Below are positions 14,416 to 40,107 of a DNA stretch of 64,000 bases, in pieces. The notes below the pieces were generated by a model. It did not search any database, was not told the origin of the DNA, and saw nothing but the letters and a program-made list of their open reading frames with translations. A program made the translations under genes and the position numbers. The stretch is taken from assembly GCA_002390675.1 (NCBI GenBank), contig DGPZ01000102.1:53356-117355 (forward strand), read 5' to 3'. Source of the DNA: Deltaproteobacteria bacterium UBA4427. GTDB lineage: Bacteria; Myxococcota_A; UBA9160; UBA4427. The first letter of the stretch is position 1. Each line of letters begins with the position of its first letter.

Positions 14416-17400
14416 CTAGTCCTTCACCGTCCAGATCGTTTCCTGGTTCGTCATGTAGAGCTTCCGCATCTCTTCGAGATTGAAGGGACGCGAGCCCAAT
14501 CGGCCGAGGACTGAGATCTGATGTCCCGTTTCGTCCACTGCGCGATCGCGTTCGAGAGGGCGCGAAACCGCGAGGGCTTCCGACTTCGTCTGGCGCATTG
14601 CGATCAGCTTCGGGTTAGGAACCGGGCTGAAGCCGTAGAACTTCGGGTTCAGCTCGGGCGAAGTCAGCTGCACGATCTTGAGGCCGTTCTTCCCATCCGC
14701 CACGTAGGCGAAGAGCGAAGCGTTCGTCGTCGCAATCGCGACATCGTGGGCATCGTTCAGCTGGCCCTCCGCTGTGAACTTCATGAACACCTTCGGACTT
14801 TCGGGCTGCTCCACATCCACGATCACGAGGCCTTCCGAACCCGACGCGACATAGGCGTAGGTCCGTGAGACAGAGACGCGACGCGCTCCGGCGAGGGGGA
14901 TCGTTGCCCCTTCGACCAGACGCGGGGCCTCGGGCTTCGTCACATCAACGACCTTCAAGCCGTCATCATCCGTCACGAAGAGATACCGGAACTGCAGCAT
15001 CGAGCCACGCGGATTATTCAGCGGGATCCTCGCCAGCATCTTCGGATTCAGCGGATCATCGAGATCGACGATCACGACGCCCTTGGCCGCTGACACGTAG
15101 AGCAGATGTCCTGCGAAATGCGCGTGGTTCGCGCCATCGAGAATGCCGTTCGGGTTCCATGTCACAGCGCGCTCAAAGAAGTTGTTGCGCGGTTCGAAAT
15201 CCGTGAGCGTCTCGTTATTCACGAGGATGAGTCCCTCTTCCGAATCCGTCACAGCCACGTAGCTGTAGATCGGATGCATCGCCTGCTCGAGGTTCACCTT
15301 CTGGATCAGATCGCTGCGGTTTAGCTCCGGGCGAAGCAGCTGCGTCGTCGGTAATGCAACACAGGTCGCGTTCTTGCTCTTGACCCGAACGTTCTGACCG
15401 AGCGGCGAGAAGGGTGCTGTAATGATGCGCTCCGAGAAGCCCTTCGTACCGATCGTCGAGACGTCAAAGGCCTGCATGCCCTTGCTACCTTCCGCGGCAT
15501 AAAGGTATTCACCGCGCAGTTGGATGCATTCGACGCGACCAGAATGATGCGTGTACTCGCCGTCGTAAAGTGCGTCACGAGGCTCCATCCAATCAGGCAG
15601 CCAGGTCAGTCGCTTCGACAGCGTCTCTCGCAGGCTCTTAATCCATCCAGCGTCCATGTCCTGATAGCCCGGCGTCACTTCAGTGAGCTCGAGATCACGA
15701 TCGACATGCTCTTGGTAGTAGTCGGGGTAGGCGTACTCGTGGAGGTAGCTACCTATGACCGCCTGGGGTTCATCCCATTCGGTCACCTGGATCGCGACGA
15801 CTTCTTCGTCGGTGCCGACCCAAGCATTGAAGCCCATGAAGTTCACGAAGTTAGTTCCCAGCAGAAGTAGCTGAGCCATGATCGCGTTGTTGTCGTTCGC
15901 TTCCGAGAGATGGCAATCCTCGCAACCCTTGGTCTCCGTCTTACGGACGGTGTGCGGGAAGTGTGGCGCGAAGGCCTGCGCGGAATAACCACTCGCCGAG
16001 ACCGGCTGCTGTTGGATGTAGATGCGGTTTCGATTGATGTCCTGGGAGGACAAGACGAGCGCCGAGCTGGAGCGGATCGGAGCGATGATCCCGTCCTTAA
16101 CCGTGCCGTGCTTGCCGAGCTGGAACATCTGATCCCGTGCGACCTGCGGGTTGTAGGTCGCAAAGTTTCGAGCAGTTTTACCCTCGTGCTTGTGGGTCTC
16201 GGTCTTCCAGTTAGCTTGGATCGTGAGATGGCAGCCGCCACACGACGTCACCCAAGAACTGTGACAAGAGAAGCAGGCAATCTCTTCATCGCCGTGGGCG
16301 CGGTTTTCCTTGCTGACGCCGGTGCCCCAACTCTGGTCGGTGCCCTTCGACATCATCTTCGCGCGGGCGGCCTTCTCGTTGTACTCCGGGTTGCCCGGCG
16401 TGACCGAGTCCTTCACCTGGCTCACCGCAAATTCGTTATGCGGGGGCAGACTCAGGCGCTGGTAAAGCTTGCCGCCGCGCCATTCGAAGCGTTTGCGGTT
16501 GTCTTGGTTGCGGAGGCGAGAGAGGTCGCGGCCTTCGACCGGCGAGGCCGGGCCGGAAGTCTTGAGCGTCGCGTATTTGTCTGCGGTGCCGTGGCAATCG
16601 CGGCAGCGGATATTCACTTCCGCGGCAACTTCGCCGTGCAGCTCTCCATTGCCATGTGAATCATCCGCAAAGTGACAGTCCGCGCACTGCATGCCGATCT
16701 CGGCATGGATATCGCGCATATGAACCGCGCGATCAAACTTCTCCTTGTCGGAGAGTCCGTCGGGAATCGCGTTGCCGCCAGCGTCAAGAAGCGTGCCGTC
16801 TCGCGAGCGCTTAAAGATGGCGCGGAAGTTCCAGCCATGACCATGATAGTCGGCGAACTTCGTGTCCTTAGTCTTGGGATTGATGTCCTTCCAGACTTCC
16901 GCCAAGAAGTTTACGTCCGCCCACTTACCCTTGTAGGAAGCTTCTTCCGGGTTTCGCTTCAGCACCTTAAGCTGCTCTTCGAAGTCCGGGTACTGCTGTT
17001 CCTCAGGCCACATGAGCGGCGCATCGGATTCGTAATCCCACATCGTGTAACCGAGATACGAGTTGAGGAACATGTTCGGCTGATGCATGTGGCAGTTCAT
17101 GCACTGCGAGGTCGGGATCGCGCGGGAGAAGGCATGCTTGATCGGATGCCCCCATTCCTTCTCGCCCGCCTCATTCGTGAGATTGGCAATCATCGGATCG
17201 TCCGTCGCGGTCTGCCCCTTATTGCCGTACTTCGAGTAGGAACCCGAGCTGTACCATTCACGATCGTTTGCATAAACGACGTGGCAACTCGCGCAGCCCG
17301 AGCTTCGGAAGTCGCCGGGCTGATCCTTCGTGCCCATGAACCACATGTTCGGATCGTTGAGGCGCGTCTTGTGGATATTAAGGACGGGGATCGATACACG

Positions 17401-18288
17401 GTTGCCAGTACCCGGCCCACGGAAGGATGCGCGCACATCGGGCTTGCCCGGTTCTTCTTCCGGATTCGGAATGCCCGTCTCGGGGAAGAAGCTGTTTACG
17501 TTTCGGCCACCGCGCTCGAAGATGCGGAAGACGTCTGCCGGTGGCACCGTTTCCCAAGCCGGAAGCGGAAGCGCCATCTGCATCACGCCCATATCCGACT
17601 GCGCGCGAGAGACCTTGAACTTGGCCTTGATCGCGGCGGGCAGGCCTTCGCGGGTATAGGCCTCGCCGAGGATGTACCGCTTAAAGGGCACGATGCCGTT
17701 GTTGTAGGAAGCGCCGCCGTAGAGCATGGCGCCGGTGGCCATAATCGAGCGCTTCGCCTTTTCGACGATCGTCGAGTGGCAAGCGCCGCAGGCTTCGTCG
17801 GCTACTCGATAGTCCGAAGGGTTGATGAAGCGGACGTACTCGGGGCTTTCCAAGTTCAGCAGTGCGTAGGTTCGCACTTCGTTGTTCTTCTTTTCCCACG
17901 TCTCGGGCATCGCGGGCTGAACATGCGCCTGCGCCTGCGCTGCAACAAATCCTTCTGATCCCGGTTCGTAGCTTCCCGAGGTCGCGGTCGCGTCGCCGCC
18001 ATGGCAATCGGTACAGCCGAGGACGACGGACCGCTGGGGATGCATCGTCGCTTCATCGGACTTCGTATGGCACGAGACACAGCCCGCGCTCTTCACGGCC
18101 GCTTCCGCCTCGGATTGATCGAGAGGCGCCGGAGGATAAATGGGATAGTCGATTTCGAGCGCGTGCTCGCCTTCCGAAGCGTTAGAGACGCCGCCTGTAA
18201 AGGTCACGGCGAAAACCGTGAGACCGATCACGAGGGTCGCAGTAAGGACCGCTGTTAGGAGCGATTGAGTACGGGATGCAGCTTTCAT
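14416..18288 (-). CDS. decahaem cytochrome c fused to a C-terminal LVIVD-repeat beta-propeller
   Basis: Signal/anchor LLTAVLTATLVIGLTVFAV. Ten CxxCH motifs: CVSCH, CTDCH, CGACH, CASCH, CMNCH, CADCH, CRDCH, CFSCH, CGGCH, CEDCH. The last ~375 aa carry repeats KGVVIVDLDDPLNPK, DGLKVVDVTKPEAPR, EGLVIVDVEQPESPK, NGLKIVQLTSPELNPK and EGLILVNN. Confidence 0.85.
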   Translation of the reverse strand: MKAASRTQSLLTAVLTATLVIGLTVFAVTFTGGVSNASEGEHALEIDYPIYPPAPLDQSEAEAAVKSAGCVSCHTKSDEATMHPQRSVVLGCTDCHGGDATATSGSYEPGSEGFVAAQAQAHVQPAMPETWEKKNNEVRTYALLNLESPEYVRFINPSDYRVADEACGACHSTIVEKAKRSIMATGAMLYGGASYNNGIVPFKRYILGEAYTREGLPAAIKAKFKVSRAQSDMGVMQMALPLPAWETVPPADVFRIFERGGRNVNSFFPETGIPNPEEEPGKPDVRASFRGPGTGNRVSIPVLNIHKTRLNDPNMWFMGTKDQPGDFRSSGCASCHVVYANDREWYSSGSYSKYGNKGQTATDDPMIANLTNEAGEKEWGHPIKHAFSRAIPTSQCMNCHMHQPNMFLNSYLGYTMWDYESDAPLMWPEEQQYPDFEEQLKVLKRNPEEASYKGKWADVNFLAEVWKDINPKTKDTKFADYHGHGWNFRAIFKRSRDGTLLDAGGNAIPDGLSDKEKFDRAVHMRDIHAEIGMQCADCHFADDSHGNGELHGEVAAEVNIRCRDCHGTADKYATLKTSGPASPVEGRDLSRLRNQDNRKRFEWRGGKLYQRLSLPPHNEFAVSQVKDSVTPGNPEYNEKAARAKMMSKGTDQSWGTGVSKENRAHGDEEIACFSCHSSWVTSCGGCHLTIQANWKTETHKHEGKTARNFATYNPQVARDQMFQLGKHGTVKDGIIAPIRSSSALVLSSQDINRNRIYIQQQPVSASGYSAQAFAPHFPHTVRKTETKGCEDCHLSEANDNNAIMAQLLLLGTNFVNFMGFNAWVGTDEEVVAIQVTEWDEPQAVIGSYLHEYAYPDYYQEHVDRDLELTEVTPGYQDMDAGWIKSLRETLSKRLTWLPDWMEPRDALYDGEYTHHSGRVECIQLRGEYLYAAEGSKGMQAFDVSTIGTKGFSERIITAPFSPLGQNVRVKSKNATCVALPTTQLLRPELNRSDLIQKVNLEQAMHPIYSYVAVTDSEEGLILVNNETLTDFEPRNNFFERAVTWNPNGILDGANHAHFAGHLLYVSAAKGVVIVDLDDPLNPKMLARIPLNNPRGSMLQFRYLFVTDDDGLKVVDVTKPEAPRLVEGATIPLAGARRVSVSRTYAYVASGSEGLVIVDVEQPESPKVFMKFTAEGQLNDAHDVAIATTNASLFAYVADGKNGLKIVQLTSPELNPKFYGFSPVPNPKLIAMRQTKSEALAVSRPLERDRAVDETGHQISVLGRLGSRPFNLEEMRKLYMTNQETIWTVKD

Positions 18289-18380
18289 TTACTGGGGCTC
18301 TCGCTCGTTGGCACGCTTGGACTGCTCGAAAGTTTAGGCATGACGTAGTCCGATTCGCAGATCGCTAATAAGGGCTCTAG

Positions 18381-20654
18381 CTAGAAAGTAAAAGTGACGT
18401 TTACGAGGGCCGAATACGGCGGCTCATCAGAGCGTTCATCAAAGAGTTCCTCGTAACCGCTGCCCGGGATCAACACCGAGCCGGAGGCGCGCAGCACGAC
18501 GTTATTCGTGAAGAACGGTCGATAGATCACGCCGGCGCTGATGTCCCAGCCGATTTCGCGACTGAGGCGATCCTGCTGACGTAGTGTCTCAAGCACCTGC
18601 ACTGAATCCCACTGCAACCAAGAAATATTGGTCAGGATACGGAGTTCAGGCAGCACATCGAAGTCCGCGCCCACGCCCGCCTGCCAAAGGCCGGGGTTCA
18701 CGAAGTTGCTCTGGCCTTCGCCCTTCGAACTGCGGAGTGAGGGCACGATGCTGTTCTTACCCGAGAGCGCGACGCTGCCACCGAACACAAAAGGAATCTG
18801 CTGACGCATCCAAAAGGAGGTCGTGCCGCCCGCGAAGTTCGGGTTGTCGAGGATTGTGTCGAAGCCCTGTGCCTTGTCGTCATAGGGGTCGTCATCGCCC
18901 ATCGAATACAAGAAGAAGGCCTTGTATCGCATCCAGTCGAGATCGTAAGACGCTTCGAATGCGGCGAAGAACGACTCTATATCCTGGCTGCGCTGGGCGA
19001 TTGGGTTGTAGTCGTCGTGACCGAATGCCCCGTAGAGCTGGAACGTTAGGTTCAAACGCTCGATATGACCGTCGCCACCCAAGCCTACGTAGTAGACCTC
19101 GTAATCGTGGCCACCAATCAGACCGACCGGGGACGGGATGACTAGGTTCTTGTTGTTGTCGAAGTCTTTTTCATCGCCTTCGCGGTTGATATTCGCCGCA
19201 AAGATCGCTTCCACGTTAAAGCCAAGGACCGGAAAATCCTGATAGTAGAAGTTGGCAATGATCGTGTGGTCATCGCGCCAGGACTCAAGATTATTGAGCC
19301 CGGAGTTCGTGTCTTTATTAAGGCGACCGAACCAGGCCAGGTTGTACTGCCCACGGTTATTGAAGAAGTTGCCGAAGAGGCGAACGCCCGGCTCGGAGCT
19401 CTCGAAGAGGAAGCCACGGAAGTCAGCGTTAAAGGGCTGAATGCCGACGCGCAGACTGTCGAAATCGAAGCGATCCGTGCGGTTCCAAAGATGCTTGTCG
19501 ATGAACGCTTCTTGAAGCGTGAAGTGATAGTCGAGACGATCATCGCCTTCGCGCGGGTCAAGCTTTACAGCGCCTAGCTGATTCACCCAAACCTTATTCA
19601 CGTTCAGCGCCGGCGTGATGCGAATCTCCCAGTCCGGCGGACGGAAGGTCGTGTCGCCCTGCACCAAAGAGATCGACGGCAACAGGGTCGTCTGGGTTTC
19701 CCAGGCGACGCCGTCACCAAAGAGATCTACTTCCGAGCCGCGGTCGCCCGCTGCGCCGGTCGGAATTGGAATCCGACGTGCTTCAAGGACATGATCGAAG
19801 ACGATATTGACGTTGATGAACCAGTCCTTCGTGCCGGGGATCGGACGGTCACCCTTCAAAGTGTTCTGGTTATAGGGGTCGTACCACTTTTCGTTGACAC
19901 CGAGATTCTCGATGATGCGCCAACGGTCAGGGACCGCGACAAACTCGTAATCTGGGAGATCGTTCTCGTAGGTCGGAACGTTTTGGCGCGTCGGTCGTTC
20001 ACCGGGCCGTCGCTGAGAGCGCGGCACTATCGGATTGGGCGCTGGCGCACCCGAAGACTCGCCATCACCTTCGTTGTCGCCCCCATCAGCCGGCCGAACT
20101 GGAGTCGGGATTCGCGGGGGCTGCGCGCGTCGCGGAGTCGGCGCCCAGGTGCCCTCGTCGATCGGCGGCGACGCCGTAGGTGACACGGGAACGGGAGCTG
20201 GCACGGGAACAATCACGCCGCCAGCAGAACCGTCAGATGCGTCATTGGTCGGCGCGGGCGTCGTAGGCACGGGCGGAGCAACCGGGACCGGGGCCTGTTC
20301 AGCGCCCGCATCGCCCTCACGACTTCCGCCGGGTCGCTGAAAGCTCGGTCGGCGGCGGCGACGTGCCCGTGCGCCGTCACTATCCGCTTGAGCGAGCAGT
20401 AATTCAGTGAAGCTCGGAACTCGAAGCTGATCTTCAATCTGCTCGAGAGTTTCCGACGTTTCGGCGGTCACTAAGAACGGAGAAGGTGCAACCGGAGCCG
20501 GCCGTGCGGCCCAGCTGGTATCGGCACCTAACAGAAGTAACCCCGACAGCAGAGCTACACTGTGTCTGCACGCTTGCGTCGCTAACCGCTTCCCTGCGAA
20601 ATCAGTTGCAGCCTCAGGGCCATTCGTGAGCGCGCGTTCAATAATCATGCTCAT
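18381..20654 (-). CDS. putative outer-membrane beta-barrel protein with a Pro-rich N-terminal extension
   Basis: Signal-like segment VALLSGLLLLGADTSWA. About 130 aa of Pro/Ala/Arg low complexity follow. The remainder is a ~520-aa region of alternating hydrophobic/aromatic strands ending ...SALVNVTFTF, a C-terminal Phe typical of BAM substrates. Its ATG overlaps the upstream stop codon (ATGA). Confidence 0.55.
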   Translation of the reverse strand: MSMIIERALTNGPEAATDFAGKRLATQACRHSVALLSGLLLLGADTSWAARPAPVAPSPFLVTAETSETLEQIEDQLRVPSFTELLLAQADSDGARARRRRRPSFQRPGGSREGDAGAEQAPVPVAPPVPTTPAPTNDASDGSAGGVIVPVPAPVPVSPTASPPIDEGTWAPTPRRAQPPRIPTPVRPADGGDNEGDGESSGAPAPNPIVPRSQRRPGERPTRQNVPTYENDLPDYEFVAVPDRWRIIENLGVNEKWYDPYNQNTLKGDRPIPGTKDWFINVNIVFDHVLEARRIPIPTGAAGDRGSEVDLFGDGVAWETQTTLLPSISLVQGDTTFRPPDWEIRITPALNVNKVWVNQLGAVKLDPREGDDRLDYHFTLQEAFIDKHLWNRTDRFDFDSLRVGIQPFNADFRGFLFESSEPGVRLFGNFFNNRGQYNLAWFGRLNKDTNSGLNNLESWRDDHTIIANFYYQDFPVLGFNVEAIFAANINREGDEKDFDNNKNLVIPSPVGLIGGHDYEVYYVGLGGDGHIERLNLTFQLYGAFGHDDYNPIAQRSQDIESFFAAFEASYDLDWMRYKAFFLYSMGDDDPYDDKAQGFDTILDNPNFAGGTTSFWMRQQIPFVFGGSVALSGKNSIVPSLRSSKGEGQSNFVNPGLWQAGVGADFDVLPELRILTNISWLQWDSVQVLETLRQQDRLSREIGWDISAGVIYRPFFTNNVVLRASGSVLIPGSGYEELFDERSDEPPYSALVNVTFTF

Positions 20655-23212
20655 CGTCCCCCACAGCCATTCTGTTCATTGCTGTTCAAGAAGGGGGCGG
20701 GCGGGCAAACGACGTACCGGAGGTTCACGTTCTCGACCGAAATGTTGTCTGCGCGAAGTCCAAAGGGCGCATTGCCAATCGGGTTCGCGATGCCACGAGC
20801 GGCTTGCGCTTTCCCGATTTCGTCCAGGGCAACAAAGGGGACGAAGTCATCCTGCTCCGCGCCATCACCCGAGACACCGTAGCCGCCAACTAAAGTGCTG
20901 TTGCCGGCGCTATCGCTTCGATAGATCGGAACCGCACCTTGGAAGATGTGGAAGCCGTTCTGGAGGCCGGTGATCAGGCCGGCATTGCCGTCCTGAATGC
21001 CCTGCATGCAGTCAAGTTGGGCACCCGCGTCGGGCGAGAGGATCAATGCGGTTCGTGCAGCATCGCAATACAGGTTTCGCTGAACCGCATTCGTAAAGAG
21101 CTCCGGTCGCGTCACCGCCGCAAGCGAACCCGTCGTATCGAAGAGCGCAGCAGCCAAGTCCGGCACCTCTTCGCAGAGCGCAACGGCAATCGCTGGAAGA
21201 ACAATCTCAGTCTGAATCCCGGTACTGAAGATGCTCCACTCTCCGTTATTAGTCGGCGCCGGCGGAACACTCGCGGTCGTCGCGTCGGGATTTCGGGAAA
21301 GCGGACCGTTGTTACCCGAAGCGACACCCGGCGGGAAATCGGGGTTTGCGATTCCGCCGAGTGAAATCGAAGACCAAGCAAATTCGCCGTCAAATATGGG
21401 ATCCGCTCCACTGAGCCCCAAGAACACCCGAGAGTCGGTGACGTACTGAGAAAAGGGCTTCGTATTTAGAACGCCGGCATTTCCGAGCGGGTCACGCGCA
21501 GCTTCCAACTGAGCCCGCGCATTCGCCTTCGACCAGAACGCCGCTTGCCGCGTCTTCGAGATCGTCACGTCGACACCGTCGAGCAACGCGTCCTGCGACC
21601 GCGCAAAGCCGAGTACGTTTCCGTCGAGGTCCACAACCGCGACATCAATTCGCGCCTGACCGCCTATGGGTCGGCGGGTCTGCGCGCGGGTGTTTTCGGC
21701 GAGCTTAAGGGCTTGGATCAGCAGTTCCTGAACGTCCGCAGCCGAGAGACCATCGGCCAATGCCGGTGCGGCGACAGCTACTGCGTTCGCCGGTGGGGCG
21801 GGATTCACACTCGGGCTGGCGGGGTAGCGCCGAGCTGTCGCTTGGTCGACGAGTTCTTCACCGTTCGCGGTCCCCGCAAAGCCATTCGTCGACTGAGGGA
21901 ACAAGCCAGTCAGTCCATTGAAGGTCGTCTCAATCACCCCTGATGTCGGGTCGAGAAAGAATACGCCGCCGCGGGGCGCGGTAAACGGGAAGAAGAACTG
22001 ATCGAAGACAAAGGTGCCAGTACCGCTGCCGAGCGTGATGAGTCCGTTCAGCCGGGCCGTGATCGCTCCGATATTGTCAGCGTCGTCCGTCGAAATTACA
22101 GGCGCACTCGCTCGCGAGCCTCGCAGCCCTGTGTCGTCGACCCAGCGAAGCGCTCGTCCAGCGACCGTTATGCGGTCCGCCCGTCGCTCAACATCTGCGT
22201 CGTAGCTCGTCGCTGCGTTTCGTCCCTTCGTGGCACCAAAAGCAATCCGCTCTTCGATATTCCGGTCGCTGTTTGTTGCGTCCTTGTCGAGACTGTAGAC
22301 GCCGTTGTATTCGATGCCGACGGCGCCGACGACGACCTTGCCTGTCAGGCCGGTCGGAGCTCCGCCCAGGTTCCGTGGCGCACTAAGCTCCGCGATATTG
22401 TCCTTATAGAGGGAGATGCCGCCGGGGTCGGCCGCGAAGCCAACCGGCAAGCGGCGTGGGCCGATCAAATCCGTCGCTAACGGCGCGACGTCCGTCGTGT
22501 CCGTGATCTGGTCGACGCCTTGGCGCGTATTGATGTCGCTGCACGCAAGCTGTGCGATCTGAACCGCGAAGAGAGGGCCGCCCGGGCGATCGGTTTCGCC
22601 AGGAAAGAAGTTCTGCTGGATCAGCGTGCTCGCAGTTCGCGAAGTGAAGGCGTTGCCCTGGGTCGAGAAGTAGTTGGACGTACCTGCCTTGCTGATCGCG
22701 GCGTAGCCGGCCGGAATAAAGACTCCGTCGAGAGCGGTCTGCAGAGAGGTCAGGCCTGCATTCGTCGCGATGGCTGTGAAGTTTGCGGAGCCGCCGTTGT
22801 TCTCCACAATAAAGGGCGTGTTTGCCGTTCGGTTAGGGCTCTCCACGGAGGTAATGAGCGAGTAGTTTGTCGTTGCCGCATCCGTGTCATAGACCGCGAG
22901 CACGTTGCTCAAGTGGTCCAGCACCACGATTGTGATATCCGGAATGCCGTTCGCTTCGGCTTCGAAAATCGCGTTCGCGATCACCTGCACGACGTCCTGA
23001 ACCGTTAAACGCGCTTCGACGCCTACAGTAGCCGCCGGATAGCCGGGCTCAGTACCACGCTGCTGGTAGTCACATTGGAATTGGCAGACTTGGGTCCGCG
23101 AAACTTCGCCGTCTTGGCAGGCGGGAAGCGAGAACGACACGACCACCGATGCCGCTAGTGCAATCACGGTTCGTAGCTGCCGTCGACCGACACTCATAAA
23201 ACGGGCGATCAT
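20651..23212 (-). CDS. lipoprotein with two GlcG/HbpS-like (DUF336, haem-binding-like) domains
   Basis: The signal has an RRQLR n-region and lipobox SFSLPAC. Domain 1 is LTVQDVVQVIANAIFEAEANGIPDITIVVLDHLSNVLAVYD. Domain 2 is LSAADVQELLIQALKLAENTRA...ARIDVAVVDLDGNVLGFARSQDALLDGVDVTISKTRQAAFW. ATG at 23212 has GGAGG 6 nt upstream; the TTG at 23215 is the alternative start. Confidence 0.65.
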   Translation of the reverse strand: MIARFMSVGRRQLRTVIALAASVVVSFSLPACQDGEVSRTQVCQFQCDYQQRGTEPGYPAATVGVEARLTVQDVVQVIANAIFEAEANGIPDITIVVLDHLSNVLAVYDTDAATTNYSLITSVESPNRTANTPFIVENNGGSANFTAIATNAGLTSLQTALDGVFIPAGYAAISKAGTSNYFSTQGNAFTSRTASTLIQQNFFPGETDRPGGPLFAVQIAQLACSDINTRQGVDQITDTTDVAPLATDLIGPRRLPVGFAADPGGISLYKDNIAELSAPRNLGGAPTGLTGKVVVGAVGIEYNGVYSLDKDATNSDRNIEERIAFGATKGRNAATSYDADVERRADRITVAGRALRWVDDTGLRGSRASAPVISTDDADNIGAITARLNGLITLGSGTGTFVFDQFFFPFTAPRGGVFFLDPTSGVIETTFNGLTGLFPQSTNGFAGTANGEELVDQATARRYPASPSVNPAPPANAVAVAAPALADGLSAADVQELLIQALKLAENTRAQTRRPIGGQARIDVAVVDLDGNVLGFARSQDALLDGVDVTISKTRQAAFWSKANARAQLEAARDPLGNAGVLNTKPFSQYVTDSRVFLGLSGADPIFDGEFAWSSISLGGIANPDFPPGVASGNNGPLSRNPDATTASVPPAPTNNGEWSIFSTGIQTEIVLPAIAVALCEEVPDLAAALFDTTGSLAAVTRPELFTNAVQRNLYCDAARTALILSPDAGAQLDCMQGIQDGNAGLITGLQNGFHIFQGAVPIYRSDSAGNSTLVGGYGVSGDGAEQDDFVPFVALDEIGKAQAARGIANPIGNAPFGLRADNISVENVNLRYVVCPPAPFLNSNEQNGCGGR

Positions 23213-23253
23213 CAAAAGCCTCCGGCTTCGACACGATCCTTCGCGATTTAGAT

Positions 23254-23273
23254 GGAACTCTTACCCGAGTTCC
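23254..23273. promoter_or_regulatory. inverted repeat GGAACTC-N6-GAGTTCC in the leader of the lipoprotein/barrel/cytochrome operon
   Basis: Perfect 7-bp arms, 42-61 nt upstream of the 23212 start codon, in the 307-bp gap between the two cytochrome operons. Function is unknown; it could be an operator or an RNA hairpin. Confidence 0.25.
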
Positions 23274-23519
23274 TACATCTATCTCGCGATCGACCGCGTG
23301 CGCCGTTTTAATCTCAGCAACAACACGCCGGCTCTTCCTTCACCTAGTTCAGCTAAAAGCTGGAAGAACGAACGCAACGAGCGTGGGCGAGTCGATTCGG
23401 CGACGACTTCAAAGTTCCGAAAACGACACCTAAGCCGTTGCCGAAATACGAAATCAAACCGGTCAGCGCGCCCCCACGCGTCCGCTCGATTCTACATCCC
23501 TGGAACGGAATTGCCGTGC

Positions 23520-25481
23520 CTAATTTAGGCGAACGAAGAGGTCCGTATGGGGGTTCCGCGGCAAGTCGGCATCAGCGCGACCGATCCCCACATAACCATC
23601 GCGCGAGACGCCGAGATGATTCGCCGGCATCGCCGCGTGATCCGAATGCGCCTCATGAATCGACGGGGCGTCGCCCTCGGCCGTGGGCTCAGCATCAGCC
23701 GCAGGCTCGCCCGACCTTTCGGGCGGTGATGTCGCCGCGGCCGACCCAGACGTCACGCTCGGCCCCATCGGGCCGTTCCCGCGCACATGAAATGGATGAC
23801 ACATAGAGCAAGGCGATGGCACCGTTTCGCCGCCCCAAGCATCCGCGCCCGCGTGACACTCGCGACAAACCGTAATGTCCGGGATCAAGATATCCCCGGC
23901 CTCATTGCTGACCCGAGTTGTCGGCTCCCTTAGAATCAACTCATAAGGAATCGAGTCCTTCATGGACCATTCGGGTCGCGGAAGCGCGCTGTCCGGCTCG
24001 GGATCGAAGACCGCTGCACCCGGGTGGCATTTTACACAGGCGAAGGGGGCGTGGGATCCGTGACTGAACACCGAGCCCGGCACCCAGATATCTTGGACTT
24101 GGACCGGAGCCACGCCCATCCCTCCGTCACTCGCTCCTCCCGGATCGAGTTCGTGACAGAGGTCGCAGGTTCCAGGACGTTCGTAGAAGCGCCGTTCCGC
24201 ACGCTCGACTTTGCTCTCGACCCATCGCCGAGAGAGTTCAGCCTCTTCCGAACTGAGTCGCGCACCTGGGCGCCGCATCCGGAGCCTACGCGGGGCCTCG
24301 GCATCCTTCACTTCGCCACTCAGCACGCGTGTAGCGTAAAACCCTCGAATCTTCGCCCTGATGTCGGCCGGATCCCCGTGCGGGGTGAAGCCCGGAGGAG
24401 CCGTGGCGTCGAAGTCGAGCCGATGGCAGTCCTGACAATGCTCCTCGAACACGACGGGCTTCATGTAGAGGCCACCCGCATCCGGCTCATGGCACGCGCC
24501 GCACTGGAGATATTGCTTCGAATCGCCGCGGCCGGTGACTGCCTTTCCGACATGACGAAGGTGACTAAATTCGAGGCCGGAGATCTCGACGAGATCGTCT
24601 GTGACATCGACTGAGACCGCCTCGAGAAGAGGGTTTGTCACGAGTGCGAGCTGGAAGGGCGGGTGGTCTTCACCGAAATCGCTCGCGTCCCGGAGCGAAG
24701 TCTCGGCGAGCTTGCCGCCGAGATCAGAATGGCAGTCCGAGCAAAAGCCAGAGCCGAGATCCGCTAGGTCGACCTGCCGGCCGCGATGTTCTAGATGGCA
24801 GGTCCCACAGTCGGCATTATCGAGCTCAGCCATCCTCATTTCCAGCGGCGAGTGCCGGCCAATATCGTGATGGCAGGTCATACAGTCATCATTCTGCACG
24901 GCCTGGAAGAACCCCGAATGACATTTCTGACAATCGCTCTCGACGTAGGCATGACCGCGGCTCACATCGCCCGTATTCCAAGGCGACTGAGCTGGCGACC
25001 AAAAGAGCGGAACTAACAGGAATCCGATCAAGATCGTGCCGATCGCGATCCAAGCCAGAGGGCGACGTGCAAAAATGCCGGATTCAAGGCCTAGCGTCGT
25101 TCGCTCTTCCAGTGAAGCACGTTCACTTTGACCTCGATCCGTCTCCTCGTATTCGAGCGCAACATCAACCTCAGCACCCTCTTCGGGTTGCAGTACCCGA
25201 AGTTCCCAAGATCCGAGCTTCAAGACATCGCCCGGGCCGATCCGCTCACCACCCGTCACCAGGCCATTGACGTTGACCTCTTGCCCAGCAGCGGCCTCAA
25301 CGTACAAGCGACCATCCGCCATGCGGAATGTCGCCTGATGCAGCGAGATCGTCAGCCCCTTGAGCGAGAGGTCGTTATCCGGCCCCCGTCCAACAAAGAG
25401 GGACTCGACTTCGATGTCGCGGTCAAGGCGGACTTTCTTGCCCGTTGGCCGCAACCGAACTTCTGTTAGGCGAACTTTCAT
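23520..25481 (-). CDS. FHA domain - single TM - periplasmic decahaem cytochrome c fusion
   Basis: The N-terminus has FHA signatures: FVGRGPDNDLSL, TISLHQA, VNVNG. TM segment LAWIAIGTILIGFLLVPLFW. Ten CxxCH motifs: CQKCH, CMTCH, CGTCH, CSDCH, CGACH, CQDCH, CDLCH, CVKCH, CRECH, CSMCH. The ATG lies 1 nt after the upstream TAA. Confidence 0.85.
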   Translation of the reverse strand: MKVRLTEVRLRPTGKKVRLDRDIEVESLFVGRGPDNDLSLKGLTISLHQATFRMADGRLYVEAAAGQEVNVNGLVTGGERIGPGDVLKLGSWELRVLQPEEGAEVDVALEYEETDRGQSERASLEERTTLGLESGIFARRPLAWIAIGTILIGFLLVPLFWSPAQSPWNTGDVSRGHAYVESDCQKCHSGFFQAVQNDDCMTCHHDIGRHSPLEMRMAELDNADCGTCHLEHRGRQVDLADLGSGFCSDCHSDLGGKLAETSLRDASDFGEDHPPFQLALVTNPLLEAVSVDVTDDLVEISGLEFSHLRHVGKAVTGRGDSKQYLQCGACHEPDAGGLYMKPVVFEEHCQDCHRLDFDATAPPGFTPHGDPADIRAKIRGFYATRVLSGEVKDAEAPRRLRMRRPGARLSSEEAELSRRWVESKVERAERRFYERPGTCDLCHELDPGGASDGGMGVAPVQVQDIWVPGSVFSHGSHAPFACVKCHPGAAVFDPEPDSALPRPEWSMKDSIPYELILREPTTRVSNEAGDILIPDITVCRECHAGADAWGGETVPSPCSMCHPFHVRGNGPMGPSVTSGSAAATSPPERSGEPAADAEPTAEGDAPSIHEAHSDHAAMPANHLGVSRDGYVGIGRADADLPRNPHTDLFVRLN

Positions 25482-25482
25482 T

Positions 25483-26319
25483 TTAGTGATACCAAAAAAC
25501 GACGAAAATGTGAACGATCAGCGCCGCGCAGGTCGCGAACGCAAAAGGAACATGAACGATCAGCCAGAGGTCAAGAAGCCCCTTAAATCGAACGTCGCGC
25601 CGAATCTGCTTCAGAAGTAGTTCCTTGCGCGCAATCAACTCAATCAGCTTCCGCTCTTGCTCTTTGGCCTCGTCGTCCAGATCAACCTCCGACGTTCGCA
25701 AGCTGCGAAGCGCGCGCGACGTCCCGCAATCAGCATCTTTCCCGGAGAGCTGGGACCGAAACGTGCCACCGATTCGCGTGTCATCTATAGAGGTCACGAC
25801 GGCATGCGCGTAGTAGTCGGGCAAGCCATCTGCGGCCATCCGACACTCAGAATCGATCTCGGCGATTCTCTCAAGCATGGCATCGAGTGTGATGTTATTC
25901 CGGTTCCGCGTCATGGAGGTCGGAACGAGTGCGTAGAACGCCACGCCAAGAATCCCGCTGATGCAAACAACGCACATCAGGGCATAAGCGAGCGTGTGAA
26001 CATTCCAGCCAAATTCGAAGGCCGAATGCAAAGGCACGAGGAAGAGCAGCCCCGTCCCTAAATAGACATGCGCCGAGACCCAGCCCTTAAGCGACGCGCC
26101 CGTCGCGGAGTAGCTCCGCTTGCGAATTCCTAGCCACATCAGCCAGAAGATCGTCGCCGCCGCGATCGTCCCAAGGCCGTAGCCAGTCCAAGAACTACCA
26201 CTCCGGCCACCCGGCGGATCGTCCACGACATAAACCACGATCGACAGAAATAGCGTACTAAGCGCCACCTTGAGATAGCGATAGTTCTGGTATTCAAGGA
26301 ATGTACGCGGCCCGATCAC
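25483..26319 (-). CDS. integral membrane protein, putative di-haem b-type cytochrome
   Basis: Five predicted TM helices. Two helices each carry His-x13-His: SAHVYLGTGLLFLVPLHS and IVHVPFAFATCAALIVHI. A ~110-aa charged loop lies between TM4 and TM5. The longest ORF starts at 26406 but would overlap the upstream gene by 83 nt. The GTG at 26319 lies 4 nt after that gene's stop codon. Confidence 0.6.
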   Translation of the reverse strand: MIGPRTFLEYQNYRYLKVALSTLFLSIVVYVVDDPPGGRSGSSWTGYGLGTIAAATIFWLMWLGIRKRSYSATGASLKGWVSAHVYLGTGLLFLVPLHSAFEFGWNVHTLAYALMCVVCISGILGVAFYALVPTSMTRNRNNITLDAMLERIAEIDSECRMAADGLPDYYAHAVVTSIDDTRIGGTFRSQLSGKDADCGTSRALRSLRTSEVDLDDEAKEQERKLIELIARKELLLKQIRRDVRFKGLLDLWLIVHVPFAFATCAALIVHIFVVFWYH

Positions 26320-26323
26320 GCGA

Positions 26324-29300
26324 CTAGCCCTGCCTTTCGTAAATTTCGTCGACGTATTCGCCGGGATCAATTCGCACAATCGCGCCGGTCGGACACGACG
26401 CAACACAAGCCGCGCGTGGCGCGCCGCTCTTTTTGGCGGGCAACTCCCGGCAGAGATCGCACTTCACGGCCTTCTTCACAGTCGCCGCTCCGCCTTCCGC
26501 CGGCTTCGCATCGCTCGCGGCCTTCTTCTTCGCACGCGAGGGGAAGAGCAGTCGCATCAAGAGCCCTGGCCCGGGCTCGTCGTCGACCTTGGCCATCTTG
26601 ATCACGTCGTAAGGACAGTAGGCCTCGCAGTTGCCGCACCCGATACACGTCTCGTCATTGATCCAGACTTCGCCGTTCGGATCGCGATTAAGCGCATCCG
26701 GTGGGCAGTCGGTCATGCACTTTGGATTTTCGCAGTGCTGACACGCGGTCGGGAGATGAAGCGCACTGCCCGCGCTCGTCATATACGTCGCGCCGGCTTC
26801 GCGATTCAAGCGAGAAACGCCGCCATGAGTCTCGCCGCAGGCTTTCTCACAATTGTCACAACGGACGCATAACGTCTCGTCGATCATCAGCAGATCCGTG
26901 GCTTCCTTACCGCCAGCCTTCTGCAGCCACATCATCGTGCCGCGACCATGCTGACGGCGCGCATCCGCAATGATGAATTCCTGCTCCTTCAGCTCAAGAT
27001 ATTCGCGAATCTCTCGCGAGCTTTCGACGTACTGAAGGATTATCTCGGTCGGGAAGAGCACCGTCTCGCAGTCGACGCCCGCTTTCGCGGTCGCCGTTCG
27101 AGTACGCCCGGGATGCAGCACTGCGAGTTCGCCGATCGTAGAGCCGGCGCGAACCGAGTCGATCTGTTCTTCAGAACCCTCGTGCTTTTTGTAGATCTCC
27201 GCGGTCCCGCGACGAATCAGATGTAGACCATCCGGCTCATCCCCCTCACCGAAGATCACTTCTCCAGCGCGATGCATCAAAGTTTCCGCGCGATCGGCGA
27301 GTCGATCGCGCGCAGCCGATTCAAGAGACGGGAAGAGTGTCGCGAGCGCGGTATTTACGTAGGCCGCGTCGATTACCTTCTTCACGTCTTCGACCGAACG
27401 CGTCAACTTGGTCATCGTGTTGCGCGGCGTCTCGATCACGATGCATTGCTGCGTCGTCGTCACCGTCTCGCCGCGGCGACGCCCCGAGATCAAACCATCC
27501 TCACCAAAGAACTGCCCCGCCAGACGCTTGGTTCGGCGCTCTGTGCGCAGGTCGTCAGGAATCGTCGGATCAGAGTTATCTAGATACGCGAGTTCGACTT
27601 CGCCTTCGATGATCGAGAAGAAGGTGTTGTCAAAGTCGGCGCGGCTATAGATGACCACCCCAGGCTTCTCTATGCGCACTTTCGACTCGAATAATAACTG
27701 CCGCAGCTGAACCATGGTGAGCGGCGCGAGCGTAGGCACCGCCTCCTGAATCCTCGCGAGATTTTCGCTGACGCTTCCGCCCACTTCTACGAATTTATTC
27801 GCGAGCACAGGCTCATCCGCGGGCTTCACGGATTCGCCGAGCACATGCTCTATGACCTCAAACCCCTGATTCATGCAGTTCTTGATCAGTGGGTATCCGA
27901 CCAGGGCACCCACCATATAAATGCCGGGAACATTCGATTCATACCGATCCGAAACGTCTGGAATCGCTTCCTTGTCCTTGCTCGGGAATGAGACACCTAG
28001 AGACTCAAGGAAGGAACGCGGCGGCGTAGCGCCCAGACGGCCTATGACGAGATCCGTATCGAGCCGTACTTCTTCGCCGGCCTTCGTCTTGAAGACAGCG
28101 GCATCGGATTCAAAGCGATCCGCGCTCGCGTGCGTGAGGTAAGCGATTTCGCCGGTTTTGATCTTCGCCTCGATGGCAGCCTTGTTCATTGGCTTTGCGC
28201 GATCGATCTCGTCGCGACGATTTACGATCGTAACTTCGTTGCCGTTTTCTGCGAGGGCGATCGCATTCTCGATGCCCGCATCGCCAACGCCAACGACAAT
28301 CACTCGCTTGTCTTCATACGCGCCGGGATCGTCGAGCTGATAGGTCACCCAGGGCTGGTCATCCCCGGGCACACCGAACTTCCGAAGATCGCCCTGCACA
28401 CCGATGGACAGAACGATATGCGTCGCGTCGACGGTCTTTGCGCCCCCCGGCCCACGCATCTCGATCTTGAACGCGCCCTTCTCGCCTTGGATCGAAAGCA
28501 CTTCCGTGGCCTCGACCAAATTCGTGCCCGCATTCGTCGCCGCTTCGCTCCACCAAGCAAGGACCTGTTCGCGAACAGCCTCTTCGAAGACCATCTTAAG
28601 GTCGCCCTGAAGCGGCAACTGCGGCGGCTCGGCCATAACGAGCTTGCCCTTCTGGTACTTCACAATCGTGTCGGCCAACACCGATCGCTCAAAGAGCGTG
28701 TGCTTCAGTCCACGCTCTGCTGCGCGCACGCCTGCGGCGATCCCTGCCGGGCCCGCACCGATGATCGCGATATTGATGCTAGACGGATCCGGCGGCGGCT
28801 CGTCGACAGACACAGGCCGCAAATGATGTGCGGTCGTCGGCTCAGCAACGCTCCCCTCGGCTGCGGCAGCCGGAGGCGAAGCGGGAGCGGCCGGGGATGC
28901 CAATTCAGAAGCCGGTGCCGGCTCGGCGGGCTCTGCAACCGGCGGGGCCGGTCCCGAATCTGCAATCGGAACGGCAGACGCTTCGACGGATCCTAGTTGG
29001 GTCGCGTCTACTTCGGGATCGGGGGTCGCCGAAGCCGCTTCGGCCGCGACTGCCTCAACCTCGAGCTTCAATCGAAGCACGACGCGATCTGCCAGCTGGA
29101 TCTCTTCGCCTCCGGCAAGCGGCGTGCGCTCCAAAATCTGGTTGCCATTCACCAGCGTGCGATTGACCTGACTCCTGTGGATCAGAACCAAGGTCTCGCC
29201 TTCCCAGACGACTTCCGCGTGCAGGCGCGAAATGCTCCGGTCGGCGAGTCGGATGCCGCAATTCAGACCGCGTCCGAGAGTGGTTGACCCAGCACCCACC

Positions 29301-29365
29301 TCGAAAACTTGCCCCGCTTGATCGGGAAGACCGCCCATCACAGTCAACGTGGCTCGGATCGACAA
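26324..29365 (-). CDS. FHA - FAD/NAD(P) pyridine-nucleotide-disulfide-type oxidoreductase - 2x cyclic-nucleotide-binding - four-cluster 4Fe-4S ferredoxin fusion protein
   Basis: FHA signatures: TLGRGLNCGIRL, SISRLHA, LVNG. A Pro/Ala linker follows. Dinucleotide fold IAIIGAGPAGIAAGVRAAERGL and a second VIVVGVGDAGIENA. cNMP signatures FFGEDGLISGRRRGETVTT and TIGELAVLHPGRTRTATAKA. Cys motifs CVRCDNCEKAC, CQHCENPKCMTDCP, CIGCGNCEAYCP and CDLC...CVASCP. The start is TTG, with GGAGG 11 nt upstream. Confidence 0.85.
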   Translation of the reverse strand: MSIRATLTVMGGLPDQAGQVFEVGAGSTTLGRGLNCGIRLADRSISRLHAEVVWEGETLVLIHRSQVNRTLVNGNQILERTPLAGGEEIQLADRVVLRLKLEVEAVAAEAASATPDPEVDATQLGSVEASAVPIADSGPAPPVAEPAEPAPASELASPAAPASPPAAAAEGSVAEPTTAHHLRPVSVDEPPPDPSSINIAIIGAGPAGIAAGVRAAERGLKHTLFERSVLADTIVKYQKGKLVMAEPPQLPLQGDLKMVFEEAVREQVLAWWSEAATNAGTNLVEATEVLSIQGEKGAFKIEMRGPGGAKTVDATHIVLSIGVQGDLRKFGVPGDDQPWVTYQLDDPGAYEDKRVIVVGVGDAGIENAIALAENGNEVTIVNRRDEIDRAKPMNKAAIEAKIKTGEIAYLTHASADRFESDAAVFKTKAGEEVRLDTDLVIGRLGATPPRSFLESLGVSFPSKDKEAIPDVSDRYESNVPGIYMVGALVGYPLIKNCMNQGFEVIEHVLGESVKPADEPVLANKFVEVGGSVSENLARIQEAVPTLAPLTMVQLRQLLFESKVRIEKPGVVIYSRADFDNTFFSIIEGEVELAYLDNSDPTIPDDLRTERRTKRLAGQFFGEDGLISGRRRGETVTTTQQCIVIETPRNTMTKLTRSVEDVKKVIDAAYVNTALATLFPSLESAARDRLADRAETLMHRAGEVIFGEGDEPDGLHLIRRGTAEIYKKHEGSEEQIDSVRAGSTIGELAVLHPGRTRTATAKAGVDCETVLFPTEIILQYVESSREIREYLELKEQEFIIADARRQHGRGTMMWLQKAGGKEATDLLMIDETLCVRCDNCEKACGETHGGVSRLNREAGATYMTSAGSALHLPTACQHCENPKCMTDCPPDALNRDPNGEVWINDETCIGCGNCEAYCPYDVIKMAKVDDEPGPGLLMRLLFPSRAKKKAASDAKPAEGGAATVKKAVKCDLCRELPAKKSGAPRAACVASCPTGAIVRIDPGEYVDEIYERQG

Positions 29366-29717
29366 CCTGATTTACCCCTCCGGCGTTCCCCAGAGCGGAT
29401 CGCTCGGATAACGATATGGCGATTCTATGCGGGCGCGCATCGGAAGCAAAGAGATCCACGTCTATGAGCAACGCTTAAGCGCTCATTTAGAAGGAAGCTT
29501 TCGTCACTTAATCGCCGGTCTTTTATGGGCCGAGGAGCCAAAGAGGGTTCCGAGCCCGCGTTTTCTGCGCGGCGAATCAGGGAAGAACACGTAAGCAGAA
29601 CTACGCCGAAGTAATTATTCCATGAACTTTGACAGTCATCAGGTCCACTCGAAAAACTCAAGCGAACTCTCCGAAACGCCGATTTCTCATGCAAACCCGG
29701 AAACTTACCGCCTGTAG

Positions 29718-39822: not shown

Positions 39823-40107
39823 GAAACTCCTCGGATCGAGCGCACGACCACGGGTAGTTGAGACGGCCGACGATAGCCCTTTCGGCTCTCCGGCCACGCG
39901 AAACCCCGTTTCCAAAACGAAAGAATGAGACCACAAGACGATTGACGCCTCGGCTCGACCTTTCCATCATGGAGAACTTCGGTTTAGTGACATTGGCCTG
40001 GATGAATTCAGACCCCTCGAGGGTCTGCGCCCTGCACATCTCATCTCGACTGAAGTCATCGCGGATCCCGCTTACGTTCAGGAACCAATCAAAAGGAGAC
40101 CGTCACC

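Follow-up and report, generated by a model that had tools for sequence, protein, structure and literature searches.

A 64,000-nt stretch of the genome of Deltaproteobacteria bacterium UBA4427 (contig DGPZ01000102.1, positions 53,356 to 117,355; hereafter the window) was analyzed for a row of redox genes on its minus strand, numbered 1 to 6 in reading order (Table 1). The original prediction, made from the sequence alone, had described genes 1 to 3 as an operon for an electron wire across the inner membrane. The gaps of 4 nt and 1 nt between these genes were confirmed, the junctions being GGC TAG tcgc GTG ATC (gene 1/gene 2) and CAC TAA a ATG AAA (gene 2/gene 3). The mechanical open reading frame (ORF) of gene 2 begins upstream, at 26406. 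Because more than 100 gene 2 homologues have 278 amino acids (aa) and their alignment starts at residue 1 of the protein read from GTG-26319, this GTG was taken as the right start. A promoter and terminator scan of positions 14000-30900, including the 305-nt gap between genes 3 and 4, gave nothing above shuffled expectation, and an Rfam search of the window gave no match. Each of the six genes is single in the window, and a paralogous "operon B" was not found there.

Table 1. Positions of the six genes, their domains and other features in the 64,000-nt window
Feature	Position	Strand	Description
Gene 1	26324..29365	-	1013 aa, cytoplasmic FHA / flavin / 2x cNMP / 4x[4Fe-4S] protein
Gene 1 FHA domain	29093..29284	-	aa 28-91, canonical, Pfam E 1.6e-10
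Gene 1 flavin/NAD(P)H domain	27863..28774	-	aa 198-501, Pyr_redox_2/3
Gene 1 tandem cNMP-binding domains	26996..27688	-	about aa 560-790, Pfam E 1.6e-24
Gene 1 four-cluster ferredoxin module	26366..26890	-	aa 826-1000, Fer4 dicluster families
Gene 2	25483..26319	-	278 aa, protein with five predicted transmembrane helices, putative di-haem b, "IMP"/PtdF type
Gene 2 H108	about 25996-25998		N-x-H-T motif
Gene 3	23520..25481	-	653 aa, FHA, one transmembrane segment, decahaem cytochrome c
Gene 3 cytoplasmic FHA-fold domain	25212..25394	-	aa 30-90, divergent
Gene 3 transmembrane anchor	25002..25058	-	aa 142-160, single hydrophobic segment LAWIAIGTILIGFLLVPLF, ARRP before it
Gene 3 periplasmic ten-haem domain	23796..24932	-	aa 184-562, 10 CxxCH
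Gene 3 C-terminal tail	23520-23785		aa 566-653, Ala/Gly/Pro/Ser-rich
Gene 4	20651..23215	-	854 aa, lipoprotein with two HbpS-like domains
Gene 5	18381..20654	-	757 aa, predicted outer-membrane beta-barrel, Pro-rich N-terminal region
Gene 6	14416..18288	-	1290 aa, secreted decahaem cytochrome, C-terminal LVIVD beta-propeller
Ser/Thr kinase gene	941-4213	-	1090 aa, C-terminal Pkinase domain (E 1.2e-53)
Tetrahaem cytochrome gene	8804-10249	+	c554-like, 4 CxxCH and one CxxxxCH, signal anchor
Conserved DNA	about 29731-29866		
Divergent ORF	29895-30872	+	starts MGKTSLARAL
DsbD_2-type gene	38998-39936	-	cytochrome-c biogenesis membrane protein
Aldehyde:ferredoxin oxidoreductase gene	40108-41835	+	AFOR_N/AFOR_C

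Gene order was compared in 84 distinct loci, each feature being scored among the loci long enough to judge. Gene 3 followed gene 2 in 77 of 79 loci, a strong synteny, and genes 4, 5 and 6 were present in 59/64, 53/58 and 50/54 loci, respectively. The conserved unit is therefore not the three-gene operon that had been proposed but a row of six genes in fixed order, and this order spans Myxococcota, Alpha-, Beta- and Gammaproteobacteria, Binatia and Acidobacteriota. All six genes are kept in order at 58-87% identity in 12 Myxococcota metagenome-assembled genomes (MAGs), and also at only 28-57% identity in the divergent locus L003. Each of genes 1 to 3 has hundreds to thousands of conserved homologues; with so many homologues and a gene order shared across phyla, the three-gene pattern is not due to chance. 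A genome scan with the gene 2 alignment found gene 2 in at least 583 species genomes. The hosts include SAR116, Rhodospirillales, Geminicoccus, Stellaceae, Usitatibacter/Casimicrobiaceae, Burkholderiales, Arenimonas/Lysobacter, Binatia and Acidobacteriota, and Oceanibacterium hippocampi CECT 7691 (L038) is a cultured carrier.

Genes 1 to 3 are referred to below as the inner module and genes 4 to 6 as the outer module. In the Myxococcales UWMA-0330 lineage (L001/L002, L025/L026), an FHA-bearing gene 1 is adjacent to gene 2, and gene 3 lies about 10 kb off in opposite orientation. The intervening genes of this lineage encode proteins of 599 aa (an SH3/c554 cytochrome), 1424 aa, 328 aa (multihaem) and 708 aa. 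The UWMA-0330 lineage has its outer module swapped, and the inner module is evidently portable, being joined to at least four different outer contexts.

Gene 1 had been described as a cytoplasmic protein with an FHA domain, a flavin domain, two cNMP-binding domains and a 16-Cys ferredoxin module. Pfam searches and the Cys count agreed, and neither a transmembrane (TM) segment nor a signal peptide was predicted. The flavin domain matched Pyr_redox_2 and Pyr_redox_3 with E values of 2e-31 and 2.4e-33 and contains GAGPAG at residue 203, GVGDAG at residue 359 and the sequence VTIVNRRDE. The NRR of the latter sits after the second Rossmann strand and parallels the HRR motif by which thioredoxin reductases recognize NADPH, and the domain is probably NADPH-specific. 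The solved relatives closest to it were YpdA/TrxR-like FNR proteins (best 7a76 and 7a7b), and TIGR04018 scored 156.5 bits against a cutoff of 339.9. Judged by these matches, the domain fits the TrxR-like FNR fold class but does not reach family level.

Sixteen of the 20 Cys of gene 1 fall into four CxxC...C...C groups (833/836/839/843, 875/878/883/887, 907/910/913/917 and 969/972/987/991), a pattern that fits four cubane [4Fe-4S] clusters. All 16 of these Cys, both GxGxxG motifs and Asn382-Arg383 of the NRR motif were kept in 51 of 52 gene 1 orthologues. The iron-sulfur (FeS) module matched HycB (7z0s), ArrB (6cz7) and PsrB (2vpw) and is of the HycB/NrfC/PsrB/DmsB/ArrB type. Since all NCBIfam equivalog scores were far under cutoff, none of the named FeS subunits is an orthologue of gene 1. 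No conserved CxxC or active-site Cys was found outside the FeS module among the 52 orthologues. As the four other Cys are not conserved, no redox-active disulfide is conserved either, and a role as thioredoxin- or bacillithiol-disulfide reductase was ruled out for lack of such a conserved motif. In the cNMP region, PF00027 matched in two stretches and the PDB relatives were regulatory subunits of PKA. Domain B retains an intact phosphate-binding cassette, GELAVL...RTAT, which reads GELAVLHPGRTRTAT, and domain A is degenerate (FGE...RRGET). Domain content and motifs make gene 1 look like an NADPH:FeS oxidoreductase into which a regulatory part is inserted.

Gene 2 encodes five TM-length helices according to both sequence prediction and an AlphaFold2 (AF2) model (predicted local distance difference test, pLDDT, 81.8), two of them with the predicted His-x13-His spacing. 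The full motifs are W80x3H84x13H98 on TM3 and W252x3H256x13H270 on TM5, and TM4 carries an SGxxG motif, S121GILG125; all three motifs are invariant. Among 35 homologues H84, H98, H108, H256 and H270 were invariant. Lys and Arg number 3 at the N-terminus, 4 in the TM2-TM3 loop and about 20 in the 115-residue TM4-TM5 loop, and 1, 0 and 0 in the remaining loops and the C-terminus. Because the positive charges are concentrated in the first three places, the positive-inside rule places the N-terminus and the large TM4-TM5 loop in the cytoplasm. TM3 and TM5 are then predicted to run parallel from inside to outside, with H84 and H256 near the cytoplasmic face and H98 and H270 near the periplasmic face, a geometry suited to two stacked bis-His haems. 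The His spacing thus suggests that gene 2 binds haem b. The remaining invariant residue, H108, lies at the periplasmic end of TM4 and could touch the first c-haem of gene 3, ligate a third haem or belong to a quinone site. At 50% identity the gene 2 family comprises 3124 clusters with E<=1e-3; 296 of these reach E<=1e-30.

Gene 3 was confirmed to combine an FHA-fold domain, one TM segment and exactly 10 CxxCH motifs, which account for all of its 20 Cys; 10 CxxCH were also counted in 73 of 77 complete orthologues. The haem region matched Cytochrome_C7 and c3 models in Pfam, and a search of the PDB found no solved sequence relative of the haem domain. No signal peptide was predicted. Haem c is attached only on the periplasmic side, so that the absence of a signal peptide, the ARRP before the TM segment and the periplasmic haems together put the FHA domain in the cytoplasm, the topology that had been proposed. 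The protein has 613-693 aa in Myxococcota versus about 550-620 aa in most others, and the C-terminal tail of about 90 aa occurs in Myxococcota orthologues only. Homology of gene 3 to MtrA/DmsE was considered and rejected, as TIGR03508 scored 15.6 bits against a cutoff of 192.2.

The outer module begins with a lipoprotein. Gene 4 has the lipobox LPAC and matched the HbpS-like family PF03928 in two stretches (E 1.7e-15). Gene 5 has a signal peptide and a C-terminal Phe; its AF2 model (predicted template-modelling score, pTM, 0.79) matched AlgE best in Foldseek (E 5e-17), followed by OprD/Occ and MOMP, and is consistent with an outer-membrane barrel resembling 18-strand channels. At least 7956 clusters of gene 5 homologues were found at 90% identity, and all that carry the name given by their source are hypothetical. 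Gene 6 has a Sec signal, 10 CxxCH and an LVIVD match (E 5e-17). Searches of PDB sequences with genes 4 and 6 returned no informative relatives and no catalytic domain was recognised. In the literature we found no description of an LVIVD-multihaem or HbpS-porin outer module.

Genes 1 to 3 probably make up a wire that conducts electrons over the inner membrane, leading from the cytoplasmic flavin/FeS protein by way of gene 2 to the decahaem cytochrome. The reading that we tentatively prefer, although we give it somewhat less than an even chance, is that they form the inner-membrane part of a trans-envelope redox system of six genes which works as an NADPH-driven outward conduit resembling the NADPH oxidases. 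The FeS module of gene 1 would dock on the approximately 115-residue cytoplasmic loop of gene 2. Electrons would pass from NADPH to FAD, through the four [4Fe-4S] clusters to the inner-face haem b and the outer-face haem b, and on to the 10 c-haems of gene 3. From there they would be handed to the outer module of lipoprotein (HbpS-like), barrel (18-strand type) and decahaem/LVIVD protein, and the terminal substrate may be a metal, humic material, O2 or something else. Such a system would follow the logic of NADPH oxidases and ferric reductases (NOX/FRE) but be built from separate subunits. Outward flow is favored because, with cytoplasmic NADP(H), it alone is downhill both in redox and in membrane potential. 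Domain content and conserved motifs support this cofactor chain, and in this respect the idea of the original prediction holds. The cNMP domains would most likely tune gene 1.

FHA domains were recovered in both end components, as had been expected. Against a Pfam gathering score of 20.7 bits, PF00498 scored 41.7 bits on gene 1 and 24.4-27.2 bits on gene 3. The FHA domain of gene 1 has M. tuberculosis FhaA (3po8, E 3.4e-11) as its best PDB match and keeps the aligned residues of the phosphothreonine (pThr) pocket, namely GR, SRLH (SRxH) and NRTLVNG (N-x-T-x-VN). It is followed on its C-terminal side by an Ala/Pro/Ser/Thr-rich linker and was restricted to Myxococcota (14/67 loci). For gene 3, a profile of 35 diverse N-termini hit GarA, OdhI, Rv1747, FhaA and EmbR (best E 7e-12), and FHA is listed for most homologues. 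Among the 35 sampled N-termini, 27 matched Pfam FHA and all 35 matched Yop-YscD_cpl; on the gene 3 protein of the window the latter model scored 23.2 bits, under its gathering threshold of 33.2. Only Gly31-Arg32 of the pThr pocket is invariant family-wide. The pThr-contacting Ser was kept in Myxococcota only and is Ala, Pro, Arg or another residue elsewhere, and in the window the pocket His is replaced by Gln and the Asn/Thr by Gln/Val.

By these residues the gene 3 domain looks more like a YscD-type docking domain than a pThr reader. YscD/PrgH of the type III secretion system (T3SS) are likewise bitopic, with an N-terminal cytoplasmic FHA-fold domain, one TM segment and a periplasmic domain, although the periplasmic part and the function are unrelated to those of gene 3. 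The FHA domain of YscD/PrgH lacks the pThr-binding residues and is a docking site for cytoplasmic components. By analogy, the FHA fold of gene 3 would most likely be a phospho-independent docking platform that holds the flavoprotein. A role in docking or assembly is favored because the pThr pocket is mostly lost family-wide yet the FHA domain recurs in the module. In Myxococcota, the canonical FHA domain of gene 1 together with the Arg and Ser of gene 3 may add Ser/Thr-kinase control.

It had been claimed that both ends of the chain present pThr readers to the cytoplasm. This stands at best in the Myxococcota clade and is weak for the family as a whole, in which 53 of 67 loci have no FHA domain on gene 1 and the gene 3 pocket is mostly lost. 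We consider it distinctly unlikely that both domains are true pThr readers through which a Ser/Thr kinase and a cyclic nucleotide gate the assembly or activity of the conduit. The canonical, FhaA-like domain of gene 1, the linker behind it and the pocket Arg and Ser of Myxococcota gene 3 would agree with such gating, as would a stand-alone double-FHA protein with canonical scores (E 9e-24) in a Ptd-like cluster (see below). A Ser/Thr kinase gene, whose product has a long N-terminal region without a domain call, lies about 10 kb from gene 6, and in L001/L002 a kinase is comparably placed, close to the genes for EPSP synthase, ArgG and PEPCK. However, Myxococcota carry very many kinases, and one at about 10 kb means little. 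The conserved cluster itself contains neither kinase nor phosphatase, and the match of all 35 gene 3 N-termini to the phospho-independent YscD-type model, together with the pocket residues replaced even in the window, speaks against pThr reading.

Several findings weigh against the NADPH-driven outward conduit. Foldseek comparison of the gene 2 model with the PDB gave only helical-bundle noise, with nothing at E<=0.001; no match to PF01794 (ferric reductase domain) was obtained at E<=0.01; and Ni_hydr_CYTB (PF01292) remained below threshold (25.8 vs 30.1 bits) and covered TM5 only. The gene 5 barrel resembles 18-strand channels and not the 26-strand MtrB. Of 81 clusters, 22 have no gene 1; obligate Fe(II) oxidisers, for which the authors favor inward flow (10.64898/2026.01.22.701106; PMC5566968), also carry the cassette; and the docking of gene 1 by the FHA domain of gene 3 is drawn by analogy.

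Kinship of gene 2 to NOX, cytochrome b561, FdnI or NarI was sought by structure and profile and could not be shown. NOX, STEAP and MsrQ were not among the Foldseek matches listed for its model, a PDB profile search found no relative, and the precomputed PF01292 tags on some homologues are equally partial. As far as these comparisons go, gene 2 shares only the His spacing with the ferric reductase domain superfamily.

Gene 1 precedes gene 2 in 59/81 clusters, and the clusters that lack it belong mainly to Betaproteobacteria and Xanthomonadales. The flavoprotein is therefore not an obligatory donor. NADPH cannot supply every cluster, and the redox partner of gene 2 may be quinones. Upstream of gene 2 in two loci without gene 1, L029 and L044, are divergent cytochrome-c maturation genes, with CcmH/CycH in both and CcmB in L044 alone (L044 5187-7846, minus strand). 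A single polypeptide of 1110 aa (P0246) contains Pyr_redox, two cNMP domains, 4Fe-4S and the membrane domain of gene 2. It may be a natural fusion of genes 1 and 2 or else an artefact of gene calling or a frameshift, and gives weak support for contact between the two proteins. A similar fused annotation was reported in Oceanospirillum beijerinckii (PMC5566968).

Electron uptake is the strongest competitor of outward flow, and we regard it as rather unlikely. In this model Fe(II), Mn(II), reduced humics or a similar donor outside the cell or in the periplasm would feed genes 6, 4 and 3 and then gene 2 acting as a quinone reductase, with gene 1 accessory or regulatory; inward flow is also the published model for PCC3/PCC4 and the nonahaem cytochrome of Ferrigenium (PMC5566968; 10.64898/2026.01.22.701106). 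The three-gene cassette of the obligate Fe(II) oxidisers Gallionella ES-2 and Ferrigenium is expressed in all conditions tested, the clusters without gene 1 keep genes 2 to 6, so that gene 2 needs another redox partner there, and the invariant H108 with its N-x-H-T motif could serve a quinone or an extra haem site. On the other hand, Pfam, PDB profile and Foldseek searches recognised no quinone-binding motif or family, and the strict conservation of the NADPH/FAD/4x[4Fe-4S] chain wherever gene 1 is present is hard to explain for a bystander. Reduction of NADP+ from donors at the level of cytochrome c against the membrane potential would be thermodynamically implausible, and many hosts (Oceanibacterium, Arenimonas, Lysobacter, SAR116) are ordinary aerobic heterotrophs.

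The nature of the barrel bears on where the electrons would go. As it is of the 18-strand type, a cytochrome threaded through gene 5 is not assured, and gene 6 may be periplasmic. We consider it improbable, though, that the system is a periplasmic reductase, in which gene 5 would be an AlgE/OprD-type substrate channel and gene 6 a periplasmic multihaem enzyme with its active site in the propeller, supplied with NADPH electrons by genes 1 to 3. The fit of the barrel model to AlgE and OprD/Occ and not to MtrB-type sheaths would suit such an enzyme, as would the ordinary Sec signal of gene 6 and its content of only 10 haems in 1290 aa plus a propeller. Gene 6 also resembles in part the ExtM/N/O cytochromes, which belong to a selenite/tellurite-reduction operon, but the ExtM match is far below cutoff (82.8 vs 800 bits). 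We know of no catalytic role for LVIVD repeats, genes 4 and 6 have no recognised catalytic domain, and the sole literature comment that we found terms LVIVD repeats cell-surface associated.

The wealth of regulatory domains in gene 1, with two cNMP domains and an FHA domain, also invites the reading of a transmembrane redox sensor, in which the haems would report the periplasmic redox state to the FeS/FAD/cNMP/FHA protein as a signal and not a flux. Gene 1 has a weak Pfam match to the Fe-S binding domain of LdpA, which is a cyanobacterial redox sensor. Twenty c-haems, a dedicated outer-membrane barrel and a lipoprotein would be excessive for a sensor, however, and Pfam found no output domain (kinase, GGDEF or DNA-binding); we hold this reading to be extremely improbable.

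Several neighboring genes were noted in the window. The c554-like tetrahaem cytochrome is the only further multihaem ORF besides genes 3 and 6; a homologue stands directly after gene 6 in L009, so that it may be a seventh, loosely linked component. Divergent from gene 1 is an ORF whose equivalent in L014 is a 405-aa P-loop protein containing GNAGLGKTSLARAL. Since the L014 protein has 405 aa, the copy in the window looks frameshifted or truncated at its 5' end. The N-terminal ~70 aa of this P-loop protein are conserved in Myxococcota loci. The aldehyde:ferredoxin oxidoreductase and DsbD_2-type genes suggest that the host has a ferredoxin metabolism at low potential and reduces thiols for cytochrome maturation by a route of its own.

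If the NADPH-driven outward conduit is correct, it would spend reducing power and membrane potential on pushing electrons out of the cell, like the eukaryotic NOX/FRE enzymes. In the fullest form of this reading (see the last paragraph), which we regard as unlikely, it could be a missing enzyme behind extracellular superoxide production or behind non-respiratory reduction of metals and humics by aerobic heterotrophs, for which SAR116, Rhodospirillales, Lysobacter/Arenimonas and Usitatibacter would be the hosts to consider. As the cluster is found in lineages not known for metal respiration, its function matters for the marine and soil chemistry of iron, manganese, humics and reactive oxygen. 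Oceanibacterium hippocampi CECT 7691 makes the cluster experimentally approachable, and the recurrent FHA fusions give a concrete entry to the question of how membrane cytochromes recruit their soluble redox partners. Experimental characterization of any family member was not found in the literature.

The fusion of FHA to a multihaem cytochrome, for which the original prediction knew of no characterised respiratory or extracellular-electron-transfer module, has already been noted. The Ferrigenium straubiae preprint describes an "NHC" cassette, points out the cytosolic FHA domain and calls such a fusion unreported (10.64898/2026.01.22.701106). Porin-less cassettes of this kind, each made up of a 9-haem cytochrome (544-556 aa), an "IMP" (308 aa) and a redox protein (796-805 aa), are also listed for Gallionella ES-2 and KS-culture Gallionellaceae in Supplementary Table 6 of He et al. 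2017 (PMC5566968). Terms for FHA or for the PCC4 redox-gene domains are absent from the text of the supplements of that paper (PMC5566968). The Gallionellaceae cassette resembles genes 1 to 3 in its [4Fe-4S] redox protein of about 800 aa, its 5-TM protein (about 308 aa, two HX13H helices), and its cytochrome of about 550 aa with a cytosolic FHA domain, one TM segment and periplasmic haems; all three proteins lack a signal peptide. It differs in having 9 haems and no porin, whereas the window has 10 haems, an additional FHA domain on gene 1 and three outer-module genes. We infer homology of the two cassettes from architecture and sizes alone. A genome scan with the divergent L003 gene 3 found Salinisphaerales, Acidobacteriota and other MAGs and returned no Gallionellaceae orthologue. 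A 2026 preprint on multihaem cytochromes from peat was considered as a prior description and concerns another system. The three-gene core and the FHA-multihaem fusion are thus already noticed in the literature, as uncharacterised; new here are the second, canonical FHA domain on the flavoprotein and the outer module.

Gene 2 itself belongs to a known type. The PCC3 and PCC4 clusters of He et al. 2017 share an "IMP" of about 300 aa with 5 TM, SGxxG and two W-x3-H-x13-H motifs, which these authors likened to ferric-reductase domains (PMC5566968). Gene 2 bears exactly this signature in size class, number of TM, SGxxG on TM4 and W-x3-H-x13-H on TM3 and TM5. The ptdABCDEFG operon described in 2024, which is PCC4, has the same inner parts in separate genes (10.1101/2023.11.21.568154). 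PtdC (FAD/NAD(P) oxidoreductase) and PtdE (cNMP and 4Fe-4S) correspond to the domains fused in gene 1, the ferric-reductase-like membrane protein PtdF to gene 2, and the decahaem PtdG to gene 3. In hhalign, the gene 2 profile aligned with the "IMP" of L017, an Acidobacteriota locus called Ptd-like from its gene content and not from the sequences of the ptd authors, over 260 columns with a probability of 99.2% and E 6.5e-20. The outer parts are unlike: the Ptd operon also has a porin, PtdB, along with the pentahaem PtdA and the tetrahaem PtdD (penta- and tetra-haem or octahaem cytochromes), whereas genes 4 to 6 encode the HbpS-like lipoprotein, AlgE-like barrel and LVIVD decahaem protein described above. 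By its predicted outer components the cluster is not a Ptd/PCC4 cluster. In L017 (10482-13656; also L016, 11341-14761), an FHA-less decahaem cytochrome is followed by the gene for the double-FHA protein mentioned above, which has 295 aa, and then by that for a 761-aa Pyr_redox-FHA-[2Fe-2S] protein. FHA is tied to the electron-transfer module in several independent arrangements. PCC3 differs more widely, with cytochromes of a median of 21-34 haems in repetitive sequences and very large porins of up to 42 predicted TM regions, and no cytoplasmic flavo-FeS partner or FHA has been described for it.

With MtrCAB/CymA and the Geobacter CbcL/ImcH-Ppc-porin-cytochrome conduits the cluster shares the general plan of an inner-membrane gate, a periplasmic multihaem relay, a barrel and an outer decahaem cytochrome, although the top structural matches of gene 5 were the 18-strand AlgE and OprD/Occ and not MtrB. 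The gates CymA and CbcL/ImcH are quinol dehydrogenases, and to our knowledge the quinone pool is where the extracellular electron-transfer conduits described in bacteria begin. The predicted gate of the window has a cytoplasmic NADPH/FeS subunit instead, and such a dedicated entry point would be a different design. NOX/FRE enzymes ligate haem by H-x12/13-H and carry electrons from cytoplasmic NADPH via flavin to the outer face. The window would follow the same logic, from NADPH through flavin and two b haems (H-x13-H on TM3 and TM5) to an acceptor on the outer face. Unlike NOX/FRE, it has 5 and not 6 TM helices, four [4Fe-4S] clusters inserted between flavin and haem, a flavoprotein that is a separate subunit of TrxR fold and not an FNR-fold fusion, and a multihaem cytochrome as acceptor. 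In its fullest form, which we regard as unlikely, the cluster would encode a wire from NADPH to the exterior that bypasses the quinone pool and is switched by a cyclic nucleotide and, in Myxococcota, by two pThr-reading FHA domains, making it a bacterial counterpart of the NADPH oxidases and ferric reductases.

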